From assembly GCF_056712565.1 (NCBI RefSeq), contig NZ_CM160072.1: a DNA stretch of 64,000 nucleotides, one strand, 5' to 3'. Both the position numbers and the translations under genes were made by a program. Positions 5,203 to 63,077 of the stretch are shown piece by piece. The notes below the pieces were generated by a model, which searched no databases, was not told the DNA's origin, and saw only the letters and a list, made by a program, of their open reading frames with translations. Every line of letters starts with the position of its first letter. Within the stretch, counting starts at the first letter, position 1.

Positions 5203-7949
<2,747 letters not shown>

Positions 7950-31294: not shown

Positions 31295-33442
<2,148 letters not shown>

Positions 33443-33457
33443 AGGTCTGGTAATACT

Positions 33458-33556
33458 GCCGGATGCGGCGTGAACGCCTTATCCGGCCTACAAAGTCTTG
33501 CTAATTCAATATATTGCAGGGGCTATGTAGGCCTGATAAGCATAGCGCATCAGGCA
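33458..33556. repeat. Pair of REP elements downstream of cmoB
   Basis: TGCCGGATGCGGCGTGAACGCCTTATCCGGCCTACA and GTAGGCCTGATAAGCATAGCGCATCAGGCA. Confidence 0.8.
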
Positions 33557-33576
33557 GTTTTGCGTTTGCATAACCT

Positions 33577-33601
33577 CAGCGCCCGTTTCCGGGCGCTTTT
33601 C
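33577..33601 (+). terminator. Intrinsic terminator of cmoAB
   Basis: AGCGCCCG-TTT-CCGGGCGCT followed by TTTT. Confidence 0.75.
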
Positions 33602-33606
33602 ACGTC

Positions 33607-36036
33607 TTATGCCTGAACAGCTGGCTGATCAAACGCCGTTAACTTCGGCGCATTGCCCGTATATTTTTCGATATACACCAGCGCAGTGTTACCGGCACAG
33701 GCATTCGCCAGCTGCGAGCTGGGGATATCCGCCGTTAACACGTTCGCACTACCGTTTTTACACAAGCCATTTTCCAGATCTAGCCATGCACCTTCATGCA
33801 CGCATACCACGCCTTTTTTGATCCCGTCAGTCACCACCGCGCCTGTCAGAATCTGACCGCGCTTGTTCCAGACACGCACCAGATCGCCATTCGCAATACC
33901 AAAGCGAGCAGCATCTTCGGTGTGAATAGTGATTGGTTCACGATCGGCAACCGCATATTTTTTACGCAGTTCCGCATAGTTAAGCTGACTGTGTAAACGG
34001 TGTGCCGGATGTGCGGTCAGAAGCTGCAACTGCTTCTCGTCGGCGGTACCCTTCCACTCATCAGGCGCAAGCCAGGTTGGGTGTGCCGGGCAATCCTTAT
34101 AGCCAAATTTTTCCAGCGTTCTGGAGTAAATCTCAATTTTGCCGCTTGGTGTACCCAGCGCATTTTTCACCGGATCGGCGCGGAAATCACCATAACGAAT
34201 GTACTGTTCGTTCTTCTCGCTGCGGCGCATTTCGATCAGTTTATTTTGCTGCCAGAAGGCATTAAACATTGGCATCGTCACGCGTTGCGCACGCGCACCT
34301 TTCTGAGCGGCATCATAGAAAAATTTCAGCCACGCCATTTCATCTTTACCTTCGGTATAGATCTCTTTTCCGCCAGGTTTGAGTAATTCAGCAAGATCGG
34401 CAAACACGTCAAAATCGTTGCGCGCTTCAAATTGCGGAGCGACAGCCTGCTTCATCGGCACAATATGCTGGTTGCTGTAATCACCGGTCATCGTCAGGTC
34501 ATTGCGCTCAAACGATGTGGTGATCGGTAATACGATATCTGCATGTTTAGCAGCTGCGGTCCAGTAGCATTCAGAAACGACGATCATCTCCGGTTTCTGC
34601 CATGCTTTAATCAGACGATTAGTATCCTGGTGATGGGTAAAGTTACCGCCACCCGCCCACCAGATCATTTTGATATTCGGATACGTTTGTTCTTTACCGT
34701 TATGCTGATATTTGCCGCCAGGATTTTCCAGCGCATCGACGATACGGGCAACAGGAATCGCCGTAATTCCGCCATCATCAGCGGCCTCGCTGGCCTGTCC
34801 GGCAATCGCCGCAGACATTTCTGGTAGCACTCCGCCAACACGCGTCGGGTTGCCACCGTTGGAGTAATGATAAGAGAAACCAAACCCGCCGCCCGGTGTA
34901 CCAATCTGCCCTAACATCGCCGCCAGCGTCACCAGCATCCAGTGTTTCTGTTCACCATATTGCTGGCGCTGAATTCCCCAGCCTGCCATCAGCATTGTGC
35001 GATTTGCCGCCATCAGTTCAGCGAGTTTGACTATCTGCGCTTCCGGTACGCCAGTAATTTCCGCCGCCCAGGCCGCGCTCTTCGGCGTATTATCGCTCTT
35101 ACCTGTCAGATACTCTTCAAACTGCGGATACCCGGTAGTGTATTTTTCAAGGAACACTTTATCGTGTTTGCCTTGTGTCATCAGGGTATGCGCAATCCCT
35201 AACATCAGTGCCACATCGGTGCCCATATTCGGTGCGATCCAGGTGGCATTATCGCCAAAGAATTCGATGGTTTCGGAGCAGATAGGATCAATGGCAATCA
35301 CTGGTTTGCCAGATTTTTTCAGCTGATGGAAGTATTCCAGCCCTTGCTCATCGGTACTGCTCCAGGCAATTTTGAGCGTGTTCAGCGGGTTCATCCCCCA
35401 CAGCACCACCACCTGGCTGTTTTCCAGAATAAGCGGCCAGGAGGTCTGCTGTTCATACACCTCTACAGAACCGACCACATGCGGCATGATCACCTGTGCC
35501 GCTCCGGTTGAATAATCGCCGCTATGCCCGGAATAACCGCCCGCCAGGTTCATATAACGTTGCAGTAAGGTTTGCGCTTTATGCAACACGCCAGAAGAAC
35601 GCCAGCCGTAAGATCCGGCAAAAATGGCCGATGGTCCGTTAGCTTTACGAATACGATCGTGTTGTTCATGAATCAGTTTTAATGCTTGTTCCCAGCTCAC
35701 CTGTACATAGGTATCTTCGCCACGACCTTTCGCCGGTTGCAGTGGATTATCGAGATAGCTTTTTCTCACCATCGGATGCTGAATACGCGCCGTGGTGTGT
35801 ACCTGATCCGCCGCCGTAGACTGTAAGGAGTTCGGTATGGTTTTCGCCAGCGCGCCTGTCGAAGAAACAATCTTGCCGTCCTTCACTTCTACGTTCATCG
35901 CTCCCCAACGGCCCGCAGTGAGAATTTTGCCGCCCTTCTCTTCTGCCCATGCGGGTAGCGGTGCAGCCGATGTCACCACCAGCGTCCCTGCCGCAATACC
36001 GCTATGTTTAATAAATTCACGTCTTGTTAATGTCAT
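33607..36036 (-). CDS. torZ: TMAO / S- and N-oxide reductase TorZ (BisZ), molybdopterin enzyme
   Basis: Start taken at ATG 36036 ([13 protein letters not shown]..., 809 aa) preceded by GGGAGGAAG; twin-arginine signal. Confidence 0.93.
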
Positions 36037-36060
36037 AACTTCCTCCCTGATCAACGAGGA

Positions 36061-37161
36061 TCACTGTTTCTCGGTAATATCTTTGGCGTTGTACTGGAAG
36101 TACCGCGTCAAAATGTCCAGTTCGTTTTCGCTCATGCTGGTTCGCGCCCCCATTCCTTTGGCAATGGACGGCCATGCATTGACGGTGTAATGGTCGGCGG
36201 CAATAGGGGCATGGCAGCCAGCGCAATAGGTATCGTCAAGTTTTTCAGCGTATTGCCATAGCGGTTTACGGTCCGCTAATGCGGGATCGATAAGCGACCC
36301 CTGCAAAGACGCCTGACGCCATTGATTGCCGTATTCGTCAGCCTGCCATTCCCCGTTTACCGTTAGCGCCTTGATACCTTCTTCACTTAATGTGGCGAGC
36401 GCCAGCCGTTGACCTGCCGCCAGGTAGAGCGTGTTTTCACTGCCCTGCATTTGATAACCCTGCAACCGAACAATTGGCTGTTTACCACTGACATCAACGA
36501 CGGTAAGATCGGTACCAGGAGTCACGGTAGCCAGGTCGCCTATGCGAGAAGTTTTGAAAGGATAAATATGTGCGCCATTAGTAACTGAAGTAGCGGCCTG
36601 ACTTTCCAGCTCATGCGCCGCGTTGTCATCCATTTTTATTTCTGGCGGAAAATGGGCAATGCCTTTATGGCAATCGATACAGGTTTCGCCGTCCTTTTGC
36701 GCTTTATTATGCATTTTTTGCGCAGATTCACTTTGCGAGGCAATATCCATGGCATCAAAAGAATGGCAACTACGGCAGGTTGCAGAGTCAGTTGCTTTTA
36801 ATTCTTTCCATACTGTTTCGGCCATTTCCTGGCGATGAGCTTCGAACTTATCGTCACTGTCTATTTTGCCGCTAACAAATTCATGATAAATATCTTTAGA
36901 TGCTTTTAATTTAGCAAATAAATAATCCATCCCTGACTTTGGAATATGGCAATCAGCACATTCCGCACGTATCCCTTTCTGGTTTGAAAAGTGGACAGTT
37001 CCCTGATATTCCTCAAAAGGTTTACTCATCGAGTGGCAGGAAAGGCAAAATGCGGTATCCGACGTTTTATGTAAGGCTTTTTGCGCCAGCAATAACCCGC
37101 CGCCACCAACCACAACCGCTATCAGCAAAAACAATAACCCAATGCGTTTTTTCCCTCGCAT
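36061..37161 (-). CDS. torY: Pentaheme c-type cytochrome TorY (TorC-like)
   Basis: 366 aa; N-terminal membrane anchor; five CxxCH motifs (CLSCH, CADCH, CRSCH, CIDCH, CAGCH). Confidence 0.93.
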
Positions 37162-37469
37162 AGATTCCTCTAATTAAATTCCAGGACACCGATACCATTG
37201 TATAAATAAATACACAACGAATTGACTACTTGCTTAATTCGGCACAACACTGCCTGAAATAATCGATAAAGAATATGATTTATTACAATGTAATCATTAA
37301 TTGCTAAGAAATAACCCAGTTGTTATTTAGAATATATATTTGTCAGTTTTGGCAATTTAAATCACATAATGAATGTGAATATATAAAATATTTTTAGCAC
37401 AACGCTATGCGCACTGTCACCCGCTCAACAGATCACGGCAATCGTTCGTTTTTTATACTGCTCAGGGAT

Positions 37470-37502
37470 AAAAAAAGGCCCCTGTTGAAATTGCAGGGGC
37501 CT
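37470..37502 (-). terminator. Intrinsic terminator downstream of cutC
   Basis: Minus strand AGGCCCCTG...CAGGGGCCT followed by TTTTTTT. Confidence 0.8.
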
Positions 37503-37548
37503 GGTACGAGCAAGCATCATATTGGGCGACATGATGCAACGGTAAAAA

Positions 37549-38304
<756 letters not shown>

Positions 38305-38308
38305 TTAG

Positions 38309-38875
38309 TTACGCCGACTGCTCGCTGGCAACGATCTCTTCAATGGACCACGGATGAAACTTAATGGTTGTTTTACCATCGGTGACCGCCAGCGTCGGAT
38401 TCGGTAATCGTTCATGCTCACCTTTTGGCGAACTGGTTTTAACTGAGATCCCCGGCAGGCTGAGTCCTTCATCAGAAAGCAATGCCAGCGCACGGGCATT
38501 CAGCGTTTCTGGATCACCCGGCAGAACGATTTCAATATGTTCCCAACCTTCGTGCGGGTAACGTTTTTCCCCGGGCCACGGTAGCTCCACAATGGAAAAC
38601 TGCCAGTGCGCAACCTGTACCGGTTCATGCAATTTAAACAGACAAATCGGTCTGCCATTGATCATATTTTCTGACAAAAGCTCGCCGCACTGTTCAAACC
38701 CGCGACGCCAGCGTTCAGCGGTGACGTTTTGATGGCAACGCAAGGAAATGTGATCGGCAGTCAGCGGAGTGATATCCAACCCCAGACGGCGGGAAAGTTC
38801 ATCTAATGCGTGGGTAAATCGCGGTAAATCCGATGCAATATCCTGCAGCTCGTCGATAGATTGCCAGTTCGCCAT
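38309..38875 (-). CDS. yecM: Conserved protein YecM
   Basis: Start taken at internal Met (MANWQSIDELQ, 188 aa). Confidence 0.88.
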   Translation of the reverse strand: MANWQSIDELQDIASDLPRFTHALDELSRRLGLDITPLTADHISLRCHQNVTAERWRRGFEQCGELLSENMINGRPICLFKLHEPVQVAHWQFSIVELPWPGEKRYPHEGWEHIEIVLPGDPETLNARALALLSDEGLSLPGISVKTSSPKGEHERLPNPTLAVTDGKTTIKFHPWSIEEIVASEQSA

Positions 38876-39090
38876 AATCACTCTTCGTCTTTCATTAAAA
38901 GCGTTAATTTACCCTGTTGCCCTGCGCCAACCAACCGCTGATTTCGCGCCGCTCCTGATGCAATAGTGAAAACGGCAATACGCCCCGCGCACGTTGCTGA
39001 CGAAAACAGCCATTTGCAGTATACTCCCGCCCTAATTTCTTTAACTGGTGCGGGCAATTTTTGCTCGCTTCATCAATGTAAGGTATTCCG

Positions 39091-40824
39091 GTGAATATTC
39101 AGGCTCTTCTCTCAGAAAAAGTCCGTCAGGCCATGATTGCGGCAGGCGCGCCTGCGGATTGCGAACCGCAGGTTCGTCAGTCAGCAAAAGTTCAGTTCGG
39201 CAACTATCAGGCTAACGGCATGATGGCAGTTGCTAAAAAACTGGGTATGGCACCGCGACAATTAGCAGAGCAGGTGCTGACTCATCTGGATCTTAACGGT
39301 ATCGCCAGCAAAGTTGAGATCGCCGGTCCAGGCTTTATCAACATTTTCCTTGATCCGGCATTCCTGGCTGAACATGTTCAGCAGGCGCTGGCGTCCGATC
39401 GTCTCGGTGTTGCTATGCCAGAAAAACAAACCATTGTGGTTGACTACTCTGCGCCAAACGTGGCGAAAGAGATGCATGTCGGTCACCTGCGCTCTACCAT
39501 TATTGGTGACGCAGCAGTGCGTACTCTGGAGTTCCTCGGTCACAAAGTGATTCGCGCAAACCACGTCGGCGACTGGGGCACTCAGTTCGGTATGCTGATT
39601 GCATGGCTGGAAAAGCAGCAGCAAGAAAACGCCGGTGAAATGGAGCTGGCTGACCTTGAAGGTTTCTACCGCGATGCGAAAAAGCATTACGACGAGGATG
39701 AAGAGTTTGCCGAGCGTGCACGTAACTACGTGGTAAAACTGCAAAGCGGTGACGAATATTTCCGCGAGATGTGGCGCAAACTGGTCGACATCACCATGAC
39801 GCAGAACCAGATCACCTACGATCGTCTGAACGTGACGTTGACCCGCGATGACGTCATGGGTGAAAGTCTCTACAACCCAATGCTGCCGGGTATCGTGGCG
39901 GACCTGAAAGCCAAAGGTCTGGCAGTAGAAAGTGAAGGCGCGACCGTTGTATTCCTTGATGAGTTCAAAAACAAGGAAGGCGAACCGATGGGCGTTATCA
40001 TTCAGAAGAAAGATGGCGGCTATCTCTACACCACCACTGATATCGCCTGTGCGAAATATCGTTATGAAACACTGCATGCCGATCGCGTGCTGTATTACAT
40101 CGACTCCCGTCAGCATCAACACCTGATGCAGGCGTGGGCTATCGTCCGCAAAGCAGGCTATGTACCGGAATCCGTACCGCTGGAACACCACATGTTCGGC
40201 ATGATGCTGGGTAAAGACGGCAAACCGTTCAAAACCCGCGCGGGTGGTACAGTGAAACTGGCCGATCTGCTGGATGAAGCCCTGGAGCGTGCACGCCGTC
40301 TGGTGGCAGAAAAGAACCCGGATATGCCAGCCGACGAGCTGGAAAAACTGGCTAACGCGGTTGGTATTGGTGCGGTGAAATATGCGGATCTCTCCAAAAA
40401 CCGCACCACGGACTACATCTTCGACTGGGACAACATGCTGGCGTTTGAGGGTAATACCGCGCCATACATGCAGTATGCTTACACGCGTGTATTATCCGTG
40501 TTCCGTAAAGCAGAAATTGACGAAGAGCAACTGGCTGCAGCTCCGGTAATCATCCGTGAAGATCGTGAAGCGCAACTGGCAGCTCGCCTGCTGCAGTTTG
40601 AAGAAACCCTCACTGTGGTTGCCCGTGAAGGCACGCCGCATGTGATGTGTGCTTACCTGTACGATCTGGCCGGTCTGTTCTCTGGCTTCTACGAGCACTG
40701 CCCGATCCTCAGCGCAGAAAACGAAGAAGTGCGTAACAGCCGTCTGAAACTGGCACAACTGACGGCGAAGACGCTGAAGCTGGGTCTGGATACGCTGGGT
40801 ATTGAGACAGTAGAGCGTATGTAA
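39091..40824 (+). CDS. argS: Arginine--tRNA ligase
   Basis: 577 aa; GTG start at 39091; class I HVGH motif. Confidence 0.97.
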
Positions 40825-40841
40825 TCGCGTTATACGGCAAC

Positions 40842-40872
40842 AGCCGATGTCATTGCAGACATCGGCTTTTTT
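40842..40872 (+). terminator. Intrinsic terminator of argS
   Basis: AGCCGATGTC-loop-GACATCGGCT followed by TTTTTT. Confidence 0.8.
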
Positions 40873-40876
40873 ATCA

Positions 40877-47686: not shown

Positions 47687-47913
47687 TCAGGATACCACTG
47701 GCGCAATTTGTAACTGCGCCGACTCATGTCGTGCTACTTCATGTTCTTCAAGGGTAAATACCGCCACACGCGACGAAAGATGGTCGGCCTGATTCAGTCG
47801 TTGCAAATCGTCGCGAAATGCCCAAAAGACATGCCGTTACTGCCAATCTGCAAGATCCCGCAGAGAATCAAAATTAAAAACAGCGTGGTCGAAATTCGAA
47901 TACGATTAAACAT
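47687..47913 (-). pseudogene. tap: Remnant of MCP gene tap (dipeptide chemoreceptor): internal deletion plus frameshift
   Basis: Minus strand from ATG 47913 encodes MFNRIRISTTLFLILILCGILQIGSNGMSF and stops after 40 codons (stop 47794-47796). A different frame encodes a C-terminal tail ...ADHLSSRVAVFTLEEHEVARHESAQLQIAPVVS ending at 47687-47689. Only about 230 bp remain where a 1.6-kb MCP gene is expected. Confidence 0.7.
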
Positions 47914-55126: not shown

Positions 55127-55384
55127 TATTCCCACCCAGAATAACCAACTTTATTTTTATGCGGTCTCACCGCACCCCGTGATGTCGCCGGGAAGCCCCG
55201 GTAAAAAATAATTAGCATTAGAATAGTTGCGATAAGCTGCAATAAGCAGACCCACCTTTTTGGTTTAATAAGTCCTTACAAATAGAAGGGGGTCTTTACA
55301 CTTATCTAAGATTTTTCCTAAATCGACGCAACTGTACTCGTCACTACACGCACATACAACGGAGGGGGGCTGCGATTTTCAATA

Positions 55385-55406
55385 ATGTGTGATGCAGATC
55401 ACACAA
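55385..55406. promoter_or_regulatory. CRP binding site in the flhDC regulatory region
   Basis: TGTGA-TGCAGA-TCACA, perfect CRP half-sites with 6-bp spacer, about 265 bp upstream of the flhD start. Confidence 0.8.
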
Positions 55407-55905
55407 AACGCTCAATTACTTAACATAAATGTATAAGTCATACTTTTGTTTTGGGTGTATTTCAATCTGTTAAAAAATTTTTCGCTACACTGGCAAGCAA
55501 AAATGAAACAGGAATAATCGAAATGGGATGTTGCGCACAGTTAAAATAACTCACCGTAAATAATCATCTGCTATAAATAATCGCTTTAATGCAATACCAG
55601 ATAAGCCATTTTTAAACAAACACTTACCGCACAACAAACTAATTAACTACAAAGAAAGGCAACAATCAACCCAATGTTAATAAAATGTTTTACATATATT
55701 AACCACTTGTTCAATATGGGAAATCAGTACATTATTTTCTTATAAATACAGTTGAAATCATATGATAACCAAGAGCAATTGATTAATTGTATTTACTAAT
55801 GACCAGACTAATATTTACCTGTTTAACTGAGTTGGGATTGCGTCGTTTCTCCATTAGGAGTAAAGCTTTAATGTCACCTGAAGTTCACAGAATAAGGAAC
55901 AGGTT

Positions 55906-62281: not shown

Positions 62282-63077
62282 GGTTCTCTCCAGCTTTAGT
62301 GTCGTTTTGTGTAGGGCAAAAACGAATGACATTCGTTAAATTAATCGGAAAACAAAGCATTACCTTTTAACTAAAAGATAAGTGACTGTGTTGACATAGT
62401 TTTAGCGAGAAATTAATTCTCCATAGGAGAGCAATATCACATCGCAGAATTACAGTGAAAACGTGCATAAATTTAGCGGGAAAAGACATAAGGAAAAGCG
62501 AATTTGTCAGACAAATTATCGAGTGCACAGCAGAATAATCCATAAGATTAGCCTGGAAGTCCTTGTTGTCTTTGGTACCCATGCGGGATGTCTTCTTTTT
62601 AACCAGTCAATAGGCCTCATTACCTGGCGTTGAGTTTTTGCAATGGTGTAATAACCGCAACTTAAAGATGTGGAAAATGCGCGTCATTCATTTCGCCATT
62701 AATTATCACTGTACTCATTAATTAACAGAACACGTATAATGAGAGCTATATCGCAAAAATGAAAAAACGTTTTATAAAATCATTGCTTCATCATGAATTC
62801 AAATTCATCGATTAATATCAACAAGATACAAAAAGCACCATCATTAAAATTCATTACAGTTACATTGATTTCATCAATGAAATGTAAAAATATATAAACT
62901 TGATGATTTAAGCATTTTCTTATACCCGTTCAGACGTTATTCTTATTTCAGATCATCGTCAGAATTGACTCCACGATCACATTTCGGACCGGCAGAAAGG
63001 AATTATTCTGCAAACAGTAATTATGGTGTTTTGATTTATCTTGCACCTCTCCACTTCTGGATATAAGGATATTAGGT

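Follow-up and report, generated by a model that had tools for sequence, protein, structure and literature searches.

The torYZ operon of Escherichia coli and the AT-rich spacer upstream of torY, a known H-NS-binding region in K-12

The torYZ locus

The window analysed here is a stretch of 64,000 nucleotides (contig NZ_CM160072.1, assembly GCF_056712565.1) from an E. coli chromosome of the phylogroup-B2 type, and at this locus it is 100% identical to ATCC 11775. Gene coordinates (Table 1) follow RefSeq, which annotates the identical sequence of ATCC 11775 and names the two genes torY and torZ. They form the well-known S-/N-oxide reductase operon of E. coli. For torZ the annotated ATG start was taken; a longer open reading frame with a TTG start extends to 36054.

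torY lies directly upstream of torZ on the minus strand, and the 24 bp between the two genes would not accommodate a separate regulatory region. The surrounding genes are cmoA, cmoB, cutC, yecM and argS. In Escherichia, torYZ is placed between cutC/micL and cmoB, with cutC, micL and torYZ all on the same strand. Among the genera compared, the order cutC-torYZ-cmoB is confined to Escherichia; in the nearest other genera, TorY is only ~61% identical and the operon occurs in other gene contexts. The GC content of the torYZ coding DNA is close to that of the genome, and torY has been flagged as a predicted horizontally transferred gene (Higashi 2016). As the original prediction had noted for torSTR-like regulators, no two-component system is found within ~6 kb of torYZ, and neither torD nor torSTR is present there.

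The K-12 locus (yecK-bisZ, b1873-b1872) is the same one. It runs collinear with the window for 7 kb without indels, has the same order cutC/micL - torY - torZ - cmoB, and its torY and torZ DNA is ~97% identical to that of the window.

Table 1. Features of the torYZ locus (window coordinates)
Feature	Position	Strand	Description and basis
torZ (bisZ)	33607..36036	-	periplasmic molybdopterin S-/N-oxide reductase, 809 aa, Tat signal; RefSeq annotation and model matches
torY-torZ junction	36037..36060	-	24 bp with the torZ ribosome-binding site GGGAGGAAG; same in K-12
torY (yecK)	36061..37161	-	membrane-anchored pentaheme c-type cytochrome of TorC/NapC-NirT type, 366 aa; annotation and models
5' part of torY CDS	36700..37161	-	57.8% AT, carries the AT-rich tract into the gene; inside both K-12 H-NS ChIP regions
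True torY upstream spacer	37162..37469	-	308 bp, 67.9% AT, TpA-rich; core of the published H-NS-bound region; presumed torY promoter(s)
torY Shine-Dalgarno region	37163..37173	-	TTAGAGGAATC directly before the ATG; surrounding block nearly invariant in six Escherichia sequences
TTTCAGGCAGTGTTGT block	37244..37259	-	alignment of six Escherichia sequences
Literature-predicted sigma-70 promoter	37391..37420	-	GTGACA -35 at 37415-37420, 18-bp spacer, TAAAAA after TGC (extended -10) at 37391-37399
Intrinsic terminator common to cutC and MicL	37470-37501	-	8-bp GC-rich stem, then seven T
MicL-S	37470-37549	-	within MicL
MicL sRNA	37470..37777	-	308 nt, sigma-E dependent, represses lpp; Rfam RF02654, MG1655 b4717
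cutC	37549..38295	-	co-oriented upstream gene whose 3' end hosts micL, outside the torYZ operon; NCBIfam CutC 476.7 bits and annotation
Anaerobic H-NS ChIP-chip footprint	36121..37796	.	K-12 U00096.2 1955116-1956791, mapped to the window; Myers 2013 Table S3
Aerobic H-NS ChIP-chip footprint	35949-39215	.	K-12 U00096.2 1954944-1958210, mapped to the window; Myers 2013 Table S3

TorY and TorZ

TorZ matches the S/N-oxide reductase model TIGR00509 (bisC_fam) with 1261.5 bits (cutoff 1017.55) and the Tat-signal model TIGR01409 with 25.7 bits (cutoff 16.7). It stays under the cutoffs of both TorA equivalog models (859 vs 909 and 819 vs 1465). TorY carries five CxxCH motifs, at residues 39, 68, 129, 161 and 313. 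It aligns with the TorC pentaheme model from end to end (residues 5-365) at 311.7 bits, which is under the TorC equivalog cutoff, and the NapC/NirT model covers residues 10-174. The architecture is thus that of a NapC/NirT tetrahaem domain joined to a C-terminal monohaem domain.

The five haem motifs, the Tat match and the short intergenic gap bear out the initial description of a pentaheme cytochrome and a Tat-signal molybdoenzyme in a two-gene operon. By its cytochrome, its catalytic subunit and its gene order, the pair is a TorYZ-type S-/N-oxide reductase operon. For the activity expected of such an operon, on TMAO, DMSO, biotin sulfoxide or methionine sulfoxide, the source is the literature on the K-12 enzyme (Gon 2000, as summarised by later work citing it). 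The name of a 'second' TMAO/S-oxide reductase system has to be corrected: in the primary literature TorYZ is the 'third' TMAO reductase, as the title of Gon et al. 2000 has it. In the proposed scheme, TorY would oxidise quinol as a pentaheme cytochrome, and TorZ, exported by the Tat route, would reduce S- and N-oxides in the periplasm.

Two related systems help to place the operon. The main inducible TMAO system of E. coli, torCAD with torS/torT/torR, is likewise built from a pentaheme cytochrome of the TorC type and a molybdopterin reductase exported by the Tat route. TorY aligns over its full length with the TorC model and TorZ with the TorA models, all under the equivalog cutoffs; in contrast to torCAD, the torYZ locus lacks a torD chaperone gene and adjacent TorS/T/R. 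Closer in organisation is TorYZ/MtsZ of Haemophilus influenzae, which comprises the same two genes with a 366-aa pentaheme TorY and torZ ~25 bp downstream. The H. influenzae operon is switched on under oxygen limitation, supports infection and prefers methionine sulfoxide (Dhouib 2016). In Pasteurellaceae, candidate FNR, ArcA and NarP sites have been predicted upstream (Ravcheev 2007), whereas the E. coli spacer has no close FNR site.

MicL and the limits of the spacer

The original prediction had treated 37162-37548 as the DNA upstream of torY. Its larger part, 37162-37469, is indeed the torY spacer. The remaining fifth, 37470-37548 (53% AT), is the final 79 nt of the small RNA MicL including the intrinsic terminator, rather than promoter DNA, and therefore the spacer open to torY ends at 37469. 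The Rfam model RF02654 matches 37470-37777 with 368 bits (gathering score 56) over model positions 1-308, in agreement with the transcript ends described for MicL (Guo 2014). The copper phenotype formerly ascribed to cutC has been traced to MicL (Guo 2014). The 79 nt at the 3' end of MicL show no differences from K-12. Since the ~90 bp upstream of 37777 are also identical to K-12 in the alignment, the published sigma-E promoter inside cutC is presumably intact here.

Composition of the DNA upstream of torY

The claim that the upstream DNA is AT-rich was confirmed. AT makes up 64.9% of the 387 bp of 37162-37548 (window mean 49.4%), a value reached by only 1.6% of 387-bp windows, and the figure rises to 72.8% over 37162-37400. 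The AT-richest 200 bp start at 37197 (76% AT) and tie for the window maximum: this peak equals that of araF|ftnB and lies above that of the flhDC regulatory region. Of the 34 intergenic regions that are 50 bp or longer, the one upstream of torY ranks fifth by AT content.

Two features make the spacer distinctive, namely its density of TpA steps and its long A/T-only runs, rather than A-tracts or curvature. TpA accounts for 12% of the steps in the 259-bp core (37162-37420) and for 10.7% in the whole spacer, compared with a window mean of 4.2%; the core density belongs to the top 0.2% of windows. The longest A/T-only run in the core spans 19 bp.

The curvature check suggested with the original prediction gave an ordinary result. 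On a heuristic wedge model, with parameters that we take to be the accepted ones, the core peaks at 23 degrees, and 55% of the blocks of equal size come to at least as much. The core contains three A/T tracts of 4 bp or longer, no more than composition-matched shuffles do. A 10-mer with a TCGATAAATT-like consensus reportedly acts as a high-affinity nucleation site of H-NS. No close match to it occurs in the spacer, where the best hits, at 37257-37272, deviate at two positions; with two mismatches allowed, the window as a whole holds 90 matches where 68 are expected, a weak enrichment. The lack of a close 10-mer match, of A-tract enrichment and of unusual curvature counts against a silencing view.

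AT-rich upstream tracts of 300-500 bp also accompany torYZ in Citrobacter, Trabulsiella, Budvicia, Leminorella, Yersinia and Limnobaculum, regardless of the genes around the operon. In some of these loci a regulator is adjacent: a hybrid kinase and a LuxR-type regulator in Y. massiliensis, and a LysR regulator in C. amalonaticus. Because AT-rich DNA precedes torYZ in most Enterobacterales examined, regulator-adjacent loci included, composition alone could be a generic promoter property.

Conservation of the spacer and promoter candidates

The spacer occurs in 5424 of 5426 complete E. coli genomes; in one strain, an IS1 insertion with deletion has taken it out. Within Escherichia its length stays between 294 and 308 bp, and indels are very rare. 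The spacer of K-12 aligns collinearly, without indels, and is 92.5% identical. It is similarly AT-rich (69.2% vs 67.9% here), and its differences are allelic only: 23 substitutions over the 308 bp, none of them in MicL-S or in the literature-predicted promoter, which both strains share.

Across six Escherichia sequences, E. albertii included, TTTCAGGCAGTGTTGT is the only invariant block that contains GC; it is possibly a factor site or a promoter element. All six sequences share the GAGG of the torY Shine-Dalgarno 11-mer, in which E. albertii has three positions that are different. The predicted promoter appears as 'GTGACA-18-TAAAAA torYZ' in Table 2 of Shimada 2014. Its TAAAAA is invariant across Escherichia, its -35 element is not conserved, and it would imply a leader of ~220 nt. 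Promoter prediction gave several other weak candidates in the spacer with similar scores, and the supplements of Cappable-seq and SMRT-Cappable-seq, searched by coordinates and gene names, gave no experimentally mapped torY start site. The torY promoter or promoters probably lie within the spacer, at a position that these candidates only suggest. We know of no paper in which the torYZ promoter has been dissected.

Given the response of torZ to HOCl and copper, the palindrome ATTACATTGTAAT (37282-37294) was weighed as a possible HprR/CusR-like box. Neither the other Escherichia species nor any other genus examined has it, and it was rejected as a chance AT-rich palindrome.

H-NS, RNA polymerase and FNR at the K-12 locus

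For the transfer of K-12 positions, the offset between U00096.2 and NC_000913.3 is taken by us to be 1,976 nt. The mapped ChIP footprints rest on this assumed offset, which fits the gene labels of Myers 2013, and on the gapless alignment of K-12 with the window.

In vitro, the torY<-cutC spacer contains a SELEX site for RpoD holoenzyme, classed as a constitutive promoter, and a SELEX site for H-NS (Shimada 2014). In Table S3 of Myers 2013, H-NS ChIP-chip regions extend over torY, the spacer and micL, with a length of 1,675 bp under anaerobic and 3,266 bp under aerobic conditions. Furthermore, the S2 Table of Higashi 2016 scores H-NS binding both for torY and for the torYZ transcription unit. 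H-NS occupancy of the torY upstream DNA is thus already known from three published genome-scale datasets, all of them in K-12; the strain studied here belongs to B2. Since the spacer is collinear, similarly AT-rich and part of the species core, H-NS presumably covers it in this strain as well.

These data support the idea, put forward with the original prediction, that the AT-rich DNA is a candidate H-NS site. As published K-12 data show occupancy, the absence of H-NS that would have spoken against it is not what is found. The prediction was correct and at the same time ordinary, because the upstream DNA of torYZ is already recorded as H-NS-bound in the K-12 maps.

The anaerobic sigma-70 ChIP-seq list contains no peak between 1955119 and 1958021 (U00096.2; Myers 2013), and therefore none in the torY spacer in vivo. 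For the K-12 sigma-70 ChIP peak at ~36124, a scan of both strands gave no consensus promoter. torZ is counted among the genes with FNR binding and regulation only in the absence of H-NS and StpA: the hns stpA double mutant alone acquires an FNR ChIP signal at torZ and shows a torZ +O2/-O2 ratio of 0.50, a twofold anaerobic induction (Myers 2013). A consensus search did not locate the published FNR peak 'within torZ': neither the spacer nor torZ contains an FNR consensus with two or fewer mismatches, and weak FNR-like sites lie inside torY at 36664 and 37003.

Low expression of torYZ and its explanations

Poor expression of torYZ in the laboratory, given at the outset as established, agrees with the literature. 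Low basal levels are given by Ravcheev 2007 and Dhouib 2016, in passages that both cite Gon 2000, and by Nasreen 2025. In a uropathogenic strain, torZ is raised 3- to 6-fold by HOCl, copper and paraquat, with copper giving the sixfold effect (Nasreen 2025). Specific activators may therefore matter as much as H-NS. A literature search for torY or torZ expression in wild type and hns mutant found no direct comparison. The only functional figure is the twofold difference with oxygen that the double mutant of hns and stpA shows, which counts against a silencing view.

We consider it probable that silencing by H-NS, together with StpA, over the AT-rich promoter and leader explains the low expression of torYZ. 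The 308-bp spacer and the 5' part of torY would act as one TpA- and AT-rich tract. RNA polymerase with sigma-70 may bind the spacer, as it does in vitro; in the cell, an extended nucleoprotein region of H-NS with StpA would cover the tract. By polymerising over promoter and leader, H-NS would shut out RNA polymerase and regulators such as FNR and hold torYZ at a constant low laboratory level. H-NS occupancy would then be the main cause of low expression. Modest induction would follow once silencing is relieved or overridden, for example when H-NS and StpA are lost in anaerobic cells, and possibly also at higher temperature or under HOCl, copper or paraquat stress.

Several traits are shared with classical H-NS-silenced promoters such as hlyE, bgl, proU and flhDC. 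In torYZ, too, AT- and TpA-rich DNA spans the promoter and the early coding sequence, the H-NS ChIP region exceeds 1 kb, and loss of hns and stpA unmasks the binding of a transcription factor. torZ and hlyE are placed in one group by Myers 2013, and the flhDC upstream region of the same window is comparable in composition to the torY upstream DNA. In contrast to these promoters, no high-affinity nucleation motif or marked curvature was found upstream of torY, and the measured effect of removing H-NS and StpA is small, about twofold.

Low expression could instead be caused by a weak promoter, or by one dependent on an activator that is missing from Escherichia, with H-NS binding as a by-product and AT-richness as an ordinary promoter or UP-element-like composition. 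All promoter candidates are weak, and the -35 element of the literature-predicted one is variable even within Escherichia. The AT-rich tracts in six other genera, the regulators next to torYZ in Y. massiliensis and C. amalonaticus that E. coli does not have, the response of torZ to HOCl, copper and paraquat, and the merely twofold hns stpA effect all fit such a promoter. However, holoenzyme alone binds the spacer in vitro, at a site of the constitutive class, while in vivo this DNA is covered by H-NS and lacks a listed sigma-70 peak. Moreover, neither FNR binding nor oxygen regulation is seen unless H-NS and StpA are removed. On balance we regard a weak or activator-dependent promoter as rather unlikely to be the cause.

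Alternatively, the spacer could be a mostly neutral remnant from the time when torYZ was inserted between cutC and cmoB; its AT content would then reflect mutational bias, and H-NS binding would be incidental. Its divergence from K-12 (7.5%) is about the reported synonymous rate of torY (dS 0.08), the gene order is restricted to Escherichia, and one strain has lost the spacer to IS1. Such a remnant is nevertheless very improbable given the invariant blocks of six Escherichia sequences (TAAAAA, TTTCAGGCAGTGTTGT and the ribosome-binding region), the steady length, the near-universal retention among E. coli genomes and the published hns stpA phenotype. Lastly, expression of torYZ mainly by read-through from the cutC or micL promoters after sigma-E or copper stress, which the shared strand, the sixfold copper induction of torZ and the role of MicL in the former cutC copper phenotype might suggest, is extremely unlikely in view of the strong intrinsic terminator in between and the independent binding of RNA polymerase to the spacer in vitro.

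Biological meaning

torYZ is a long-known cryptic operon, and the probable silencing by H-NS matters little beyond good annotation. For that annotation, the DNA upstream of torY should be read as 79 nt of MicL with its terminator, followed by the 308-bp spacer. Fusions or deletions built on 37162-37548 would harm MicL, a functional sRNA.

A wider reading, to which we attach little credence, joins micL and torYZ in one H-NS-controlled stress module in which TorYZ is a repair reductase and TTTCAGGCAGTGTTGT the site of an anti-silencer. We know of no anti-silencer for this locus. One extended H-NS region does span micL, its sigma-E promoter, the spacer and torY. If the reading were true, both units would be released whenever H-NS is loosened, be it by 37 degrees C, by host-like envelope or oxidative stress or by copper, and a putative factor at TTTCAGGCAGTGTTGT might act as the anti-silencer. 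MicL-related envelope protection would then be freed along with TorYZ, which would serve as a periplasmic methionine-sulfoxide/S-oxide repair reductase and not as a respiratory TMAO reductase.

The torYZ locus

From left to right, the neighbourhood comprises cmoA and cmoB (plus strand), torZ, torY, cutC and yecM (minus strand) and argS (plus strand), according to the RefSeq annotation of the identical record. In a megablast search of complete E. coli genomes, 33400-37700 was 100% identical to ATCC 11775, S88, APEC O18 and other B2-type strains, and in 5307 of the 5426 genomes there was a place with at least 80% query coverage. Alignment with E. coli K-12 MG1655 (K-12) showed zero gaps over 7 kb around torYZ. 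The 4.3-kb query hit multiple places per E. coli genome (median 34), probably because of the repeated extragenic (REP/BIME-like) sequence in the convergent cmoB-torZ spacer (33443-33606). An Rfam scan placed an ES036/CssrF match at 33492-33534 (43 bits, gathering 37.6) and a naRNA4 match below threshold at 33444-33488.

Features of the torYZ region in window coordinates
Feature	Coordinates	Strand	Remarks
torZ	33607-36036	minus	annotated ATG start
torY	36061-37161	minus	24 bp upstream of torZ
MicL sRNA	37470-37777	minus	Rfam, full model: 368 bits (gathering 56)
MicL terminator hairpin	37470-37501		

TorY carries CxxCH motifs at residues 39, 68, 129, 161 and 313 and, over its full length, aligns with the TorC pentaheme model, with a score under the equivalog cutoff. 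TorZ passes both the Tat-signal and the bisC_fam models and stays under both TorA equivalog cutoffs; a mechanical ORF list also offers a longer TTG-start version reaching 36054. TorYZ fits a TorC/TorA paralogue pair. These results, together with the 24-bp gap, confirm the pentaheme cytochrome and the Tat-signal molybdoenzyme of the original prediction and their two-gene arrangement. The reported lack of an adjacent two-component regulator was also borne out, with none annotated by RefSeq within ~6 kb of torYZ.

Elsewhere in the window, the flhE-argS gap is only 52 bp (40825-40876), and in E. coli DS26-1 yecT and yecV sit between these genes; the difference is a strain-variable insertion or deletion. 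In K-12, yecT is an H-NS-bound unit (Higashi 2016, PMC4720273). RefSeq also records a frameshifted, truncated Tar-like chemoreceptor remnant between tar and cheR, the usual tap position (47762-47913), and marks exoX (5203-5865) as a pseudogene interrupted by an internal stop.

AT content and the MicL boundary

The region first described as AT-rich DNA upstream of torY, 37162-37548, is indeed so: it contains 64.9% AT against 49.4% for the window, a value reached by only 1.6% of equal-sized windows, and ranks fifth by overall AT among the 34 intergenic regions that are 50 bp or longer. Its richest 200 bp, starting at 37197, are 76% AT, the joint window maximum, equal to araF|ftnB and above the flhDC regulatory region. 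The extent of the region has to be corrected, as the MicL sRNA was missed. MicL, which depends on sigma-E and represses lpp, overlaps the cutC 3′ end and occupies the first 79 nt of the region, so that 37470-37548, its less AT-rich fifth (53% AT), is functional sRNA plus terminator. These last 79 nt of MicL show no differences from K-12. The sRNA is b4717 in the MG1655 annotation and is absent from the RefSeq annotation of the window strain. The spacer left for torY is 37162-37469 (308 bp, 67.9% AT).

Other strongly AT-rich intergenic tracts lie upstream of flhDC (55127-55905), between ftnB and araF (62282-63077) and around yebB/yobI/ruvA (25130-25404), with 200-bp peaks of 74-76% AT.

H-NS occupancy

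Published coordinates were transferred to the window through the gap-free K-12 alignment and a 1,976-nt offset from U00096.2 to NC_000913.3, which we take to be correct and which agrees with the gene labels of Myers et al. H-NS ChIP-chip regions at 1955116-1956791 (anaerobic) and 1954944-1958210 (aerobic) of U00096.2 (Myers et al. 2013, PMC3688515, Table S3) correspond to 36121-37796 and 35949-39215. Both span torY, the spacer and micL and, at more than 1 kb, belong to the ‘extended’ class of that study. In vitro, the torY-cutC spacer holds a genomic-SELEX site of RpoD holoenzyme and has a predicted promoter, GTGACA-18-TAAAAA, and an ‘HNS’ mark denoting an H-NS genomic-SELEX site within the same spacer (Shimada et al. 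2014, PMC3946193, Table 2). This promoter is unchanged in the window (-35 at 37415-37420, TGC-TAAAAA at 37391-37399). Furthermore, torY is listed as H-NS-bound, torYZ as an H-NS-bound transcription unit and cutC as bound at its 3′ end only (Higashi et al. 2016, PMC4720273, S2 Table). Three K-12 datasets (SELEX, ChIP-chip and S2 Table) therefore support the proposed candidate H-NS site, and H-NS very likely occupies the torYZ upstream DNA in E. coli generally.

An IHF ChIP-chip region (U00096.2 1956449-1957477; Myers 2013, PMC3688515) maps to 37454-38482, spanning cutC and micL and touching the spacer at its terminator-proximal end.

Sequence properties of the spacer

In the 259-bp spacer core (37162-37420), TpA steps amount to 12% against a window mean of 4.2% (top 0.2% of windows), and the longest A/T-only run is 19 bp. 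A-tracts are not enriched in the core relative to composition-matched shuffles, and the H-NS 10-mer consensus is matched only with two mismatches (37257-37272). Curvature, proposed earlier as a check, gave a negative outcome, the core being ordinary in a wedge model, which is a heuristic only. Contiguous TpA-rich AT DNA is a good H-NS substrate without A-tract curvature. The core properties thus fit binding and add nothing beyond the ChIP data.

Conservation within Escherichia

The spacer was found in 5424 of 5426 complete genomes, ~1% of which are without its full coverage. Between the window strain and K-12, divergence is 7.5% in the spacer, 3.2% in torY, 3.1% in torZ and 0 in MicL-S. As the spacer value approximates the torY synonymous rate (dS 0.08; Higashi et al. 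2016, PMC4720273), most spacer positions look nearly neutral. Across six Escherichia sequences the spacer measures 294-308 bp (68-74% AT); the TAAAAA -10 element, TTTCAGGCAGTGTTGT (37244-37259, minus strand) and the ribosome-binding region are invariant, and the -35 GTGACA is not conserved. TTTCAGGCAGTGTTGT is the sole GC-containing spacer block invariant from E. coli to E. albertii.

In E. coli DS26-1, the bulk of the AT-rich spacer and the 5′ third of torY have given way to an IS1A element (5068-5836 of L039, ~36835-37402 of the window), and torY is left as a pseudogene.

torYZ in other genera

A TorY scan across one genome per species yielded 34 loci, among which the cutC-torYZ-cmoB arrangement is confined to Escherichia. 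Other contexts occur in Citrobacter, Trabulsiella, Budvicia, Leminorella, Yersinia, Limnobaculum, Vibrio and Photobacterium (TorY 52-64% identical). In most Enterobacterales loci the upstream 300-500 bp are 65-84% AT; AT-richness therefore goes with the operon, in E. coli as elsewhere. In Yersinia massiliensis, a divergent 1195-aa hybrid sensor kinase and LuxR-type response regulator lie 1.1 kb upstream of torYZ (L022, 690-4897). LysR and Usp genes neighbour torYZ in C. amalonaticus, and in C. braakii and Citrobacter sp. On2M (L017, L010) a torCA-like pair is followed by TorD-like and Usp genes and then torYZ. Leminorella grimontii has two torYZ copies (L021, L023). These varied neighbours support the earlier view that E. 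coli is without a dedicated adjacent regulator. Given the regulators beside torYZ in Y. massiliensis and C. amalonaticus, a missing activator, and not H-NS alone, may explain low torYZ expression in E. coli.

Expression and proposed silencing

Secondary sources citing Gon et al. 2000 state that TMAO respiration by a torYZ-only strain needs operon overexpression. In K-12, the spacer has no in vivo sigma-70 peak in the anaerobic list although holoenzyme binds it in vitro; the nearest anaerobic ChIP-seq peaks are at 1955119 and 1958021 of U00096.2 (Myers et al. 2013, PMC3688515). It is unlikely that transcripts reading through from cutC or micL supply torYZ expression, in view of the strong terminator after cutC/micL and the published MicL transcript ends (Guo et al.).

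A sizeable K-12 sigma-70 peak (1955119, labelled torZ and higher anaerobically, 577 against 835; Myers et al. 2013, PMC3688515) maps to ~36124, in the torY 3′ end, 88 bp before the torZ ATG and at the margin of the H-NS region. No consensus promoter was found near ~36124 on either strand; the peak could mark a torZ promoter internal to the operon, an antisense promoter or a spurious one.

Silencing by H-NS is addressed indirectly by the hns stpA double mutant, in which FNR gains a ChIP signal assigned to torZ (Table S7) and in which alone torZ shows a +O2/-O2 ratio of 0.50 (Table S11); torZ is also listed as temperature-responsive (Myers et al. 2013, PMC3688515). No fold change comparing wild type directly with an hns mutant was found in the literature that could be searched. 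In uropathogenic EC958, HOCl, copper and paraquat raise torZ about 4-, 6- and 3-fold, respectively (Nasreen et al. 2025), so torYZ is not fully silent. An HprR/CusR-box-like palindrome (37282-37294), considered for this stress response, was rejected as it is not conserved even within Escherichia.

The torYZ promoter appears not to have been dissected by anyone. The H-NS interpretation is supported by the existing K-12 occupancy data and the modest published hns stpA phenotype, which means that H-NS at torYZ is already on record in published datasets. On this evidence, H-NS is probably a main cause of low torYZ expression.
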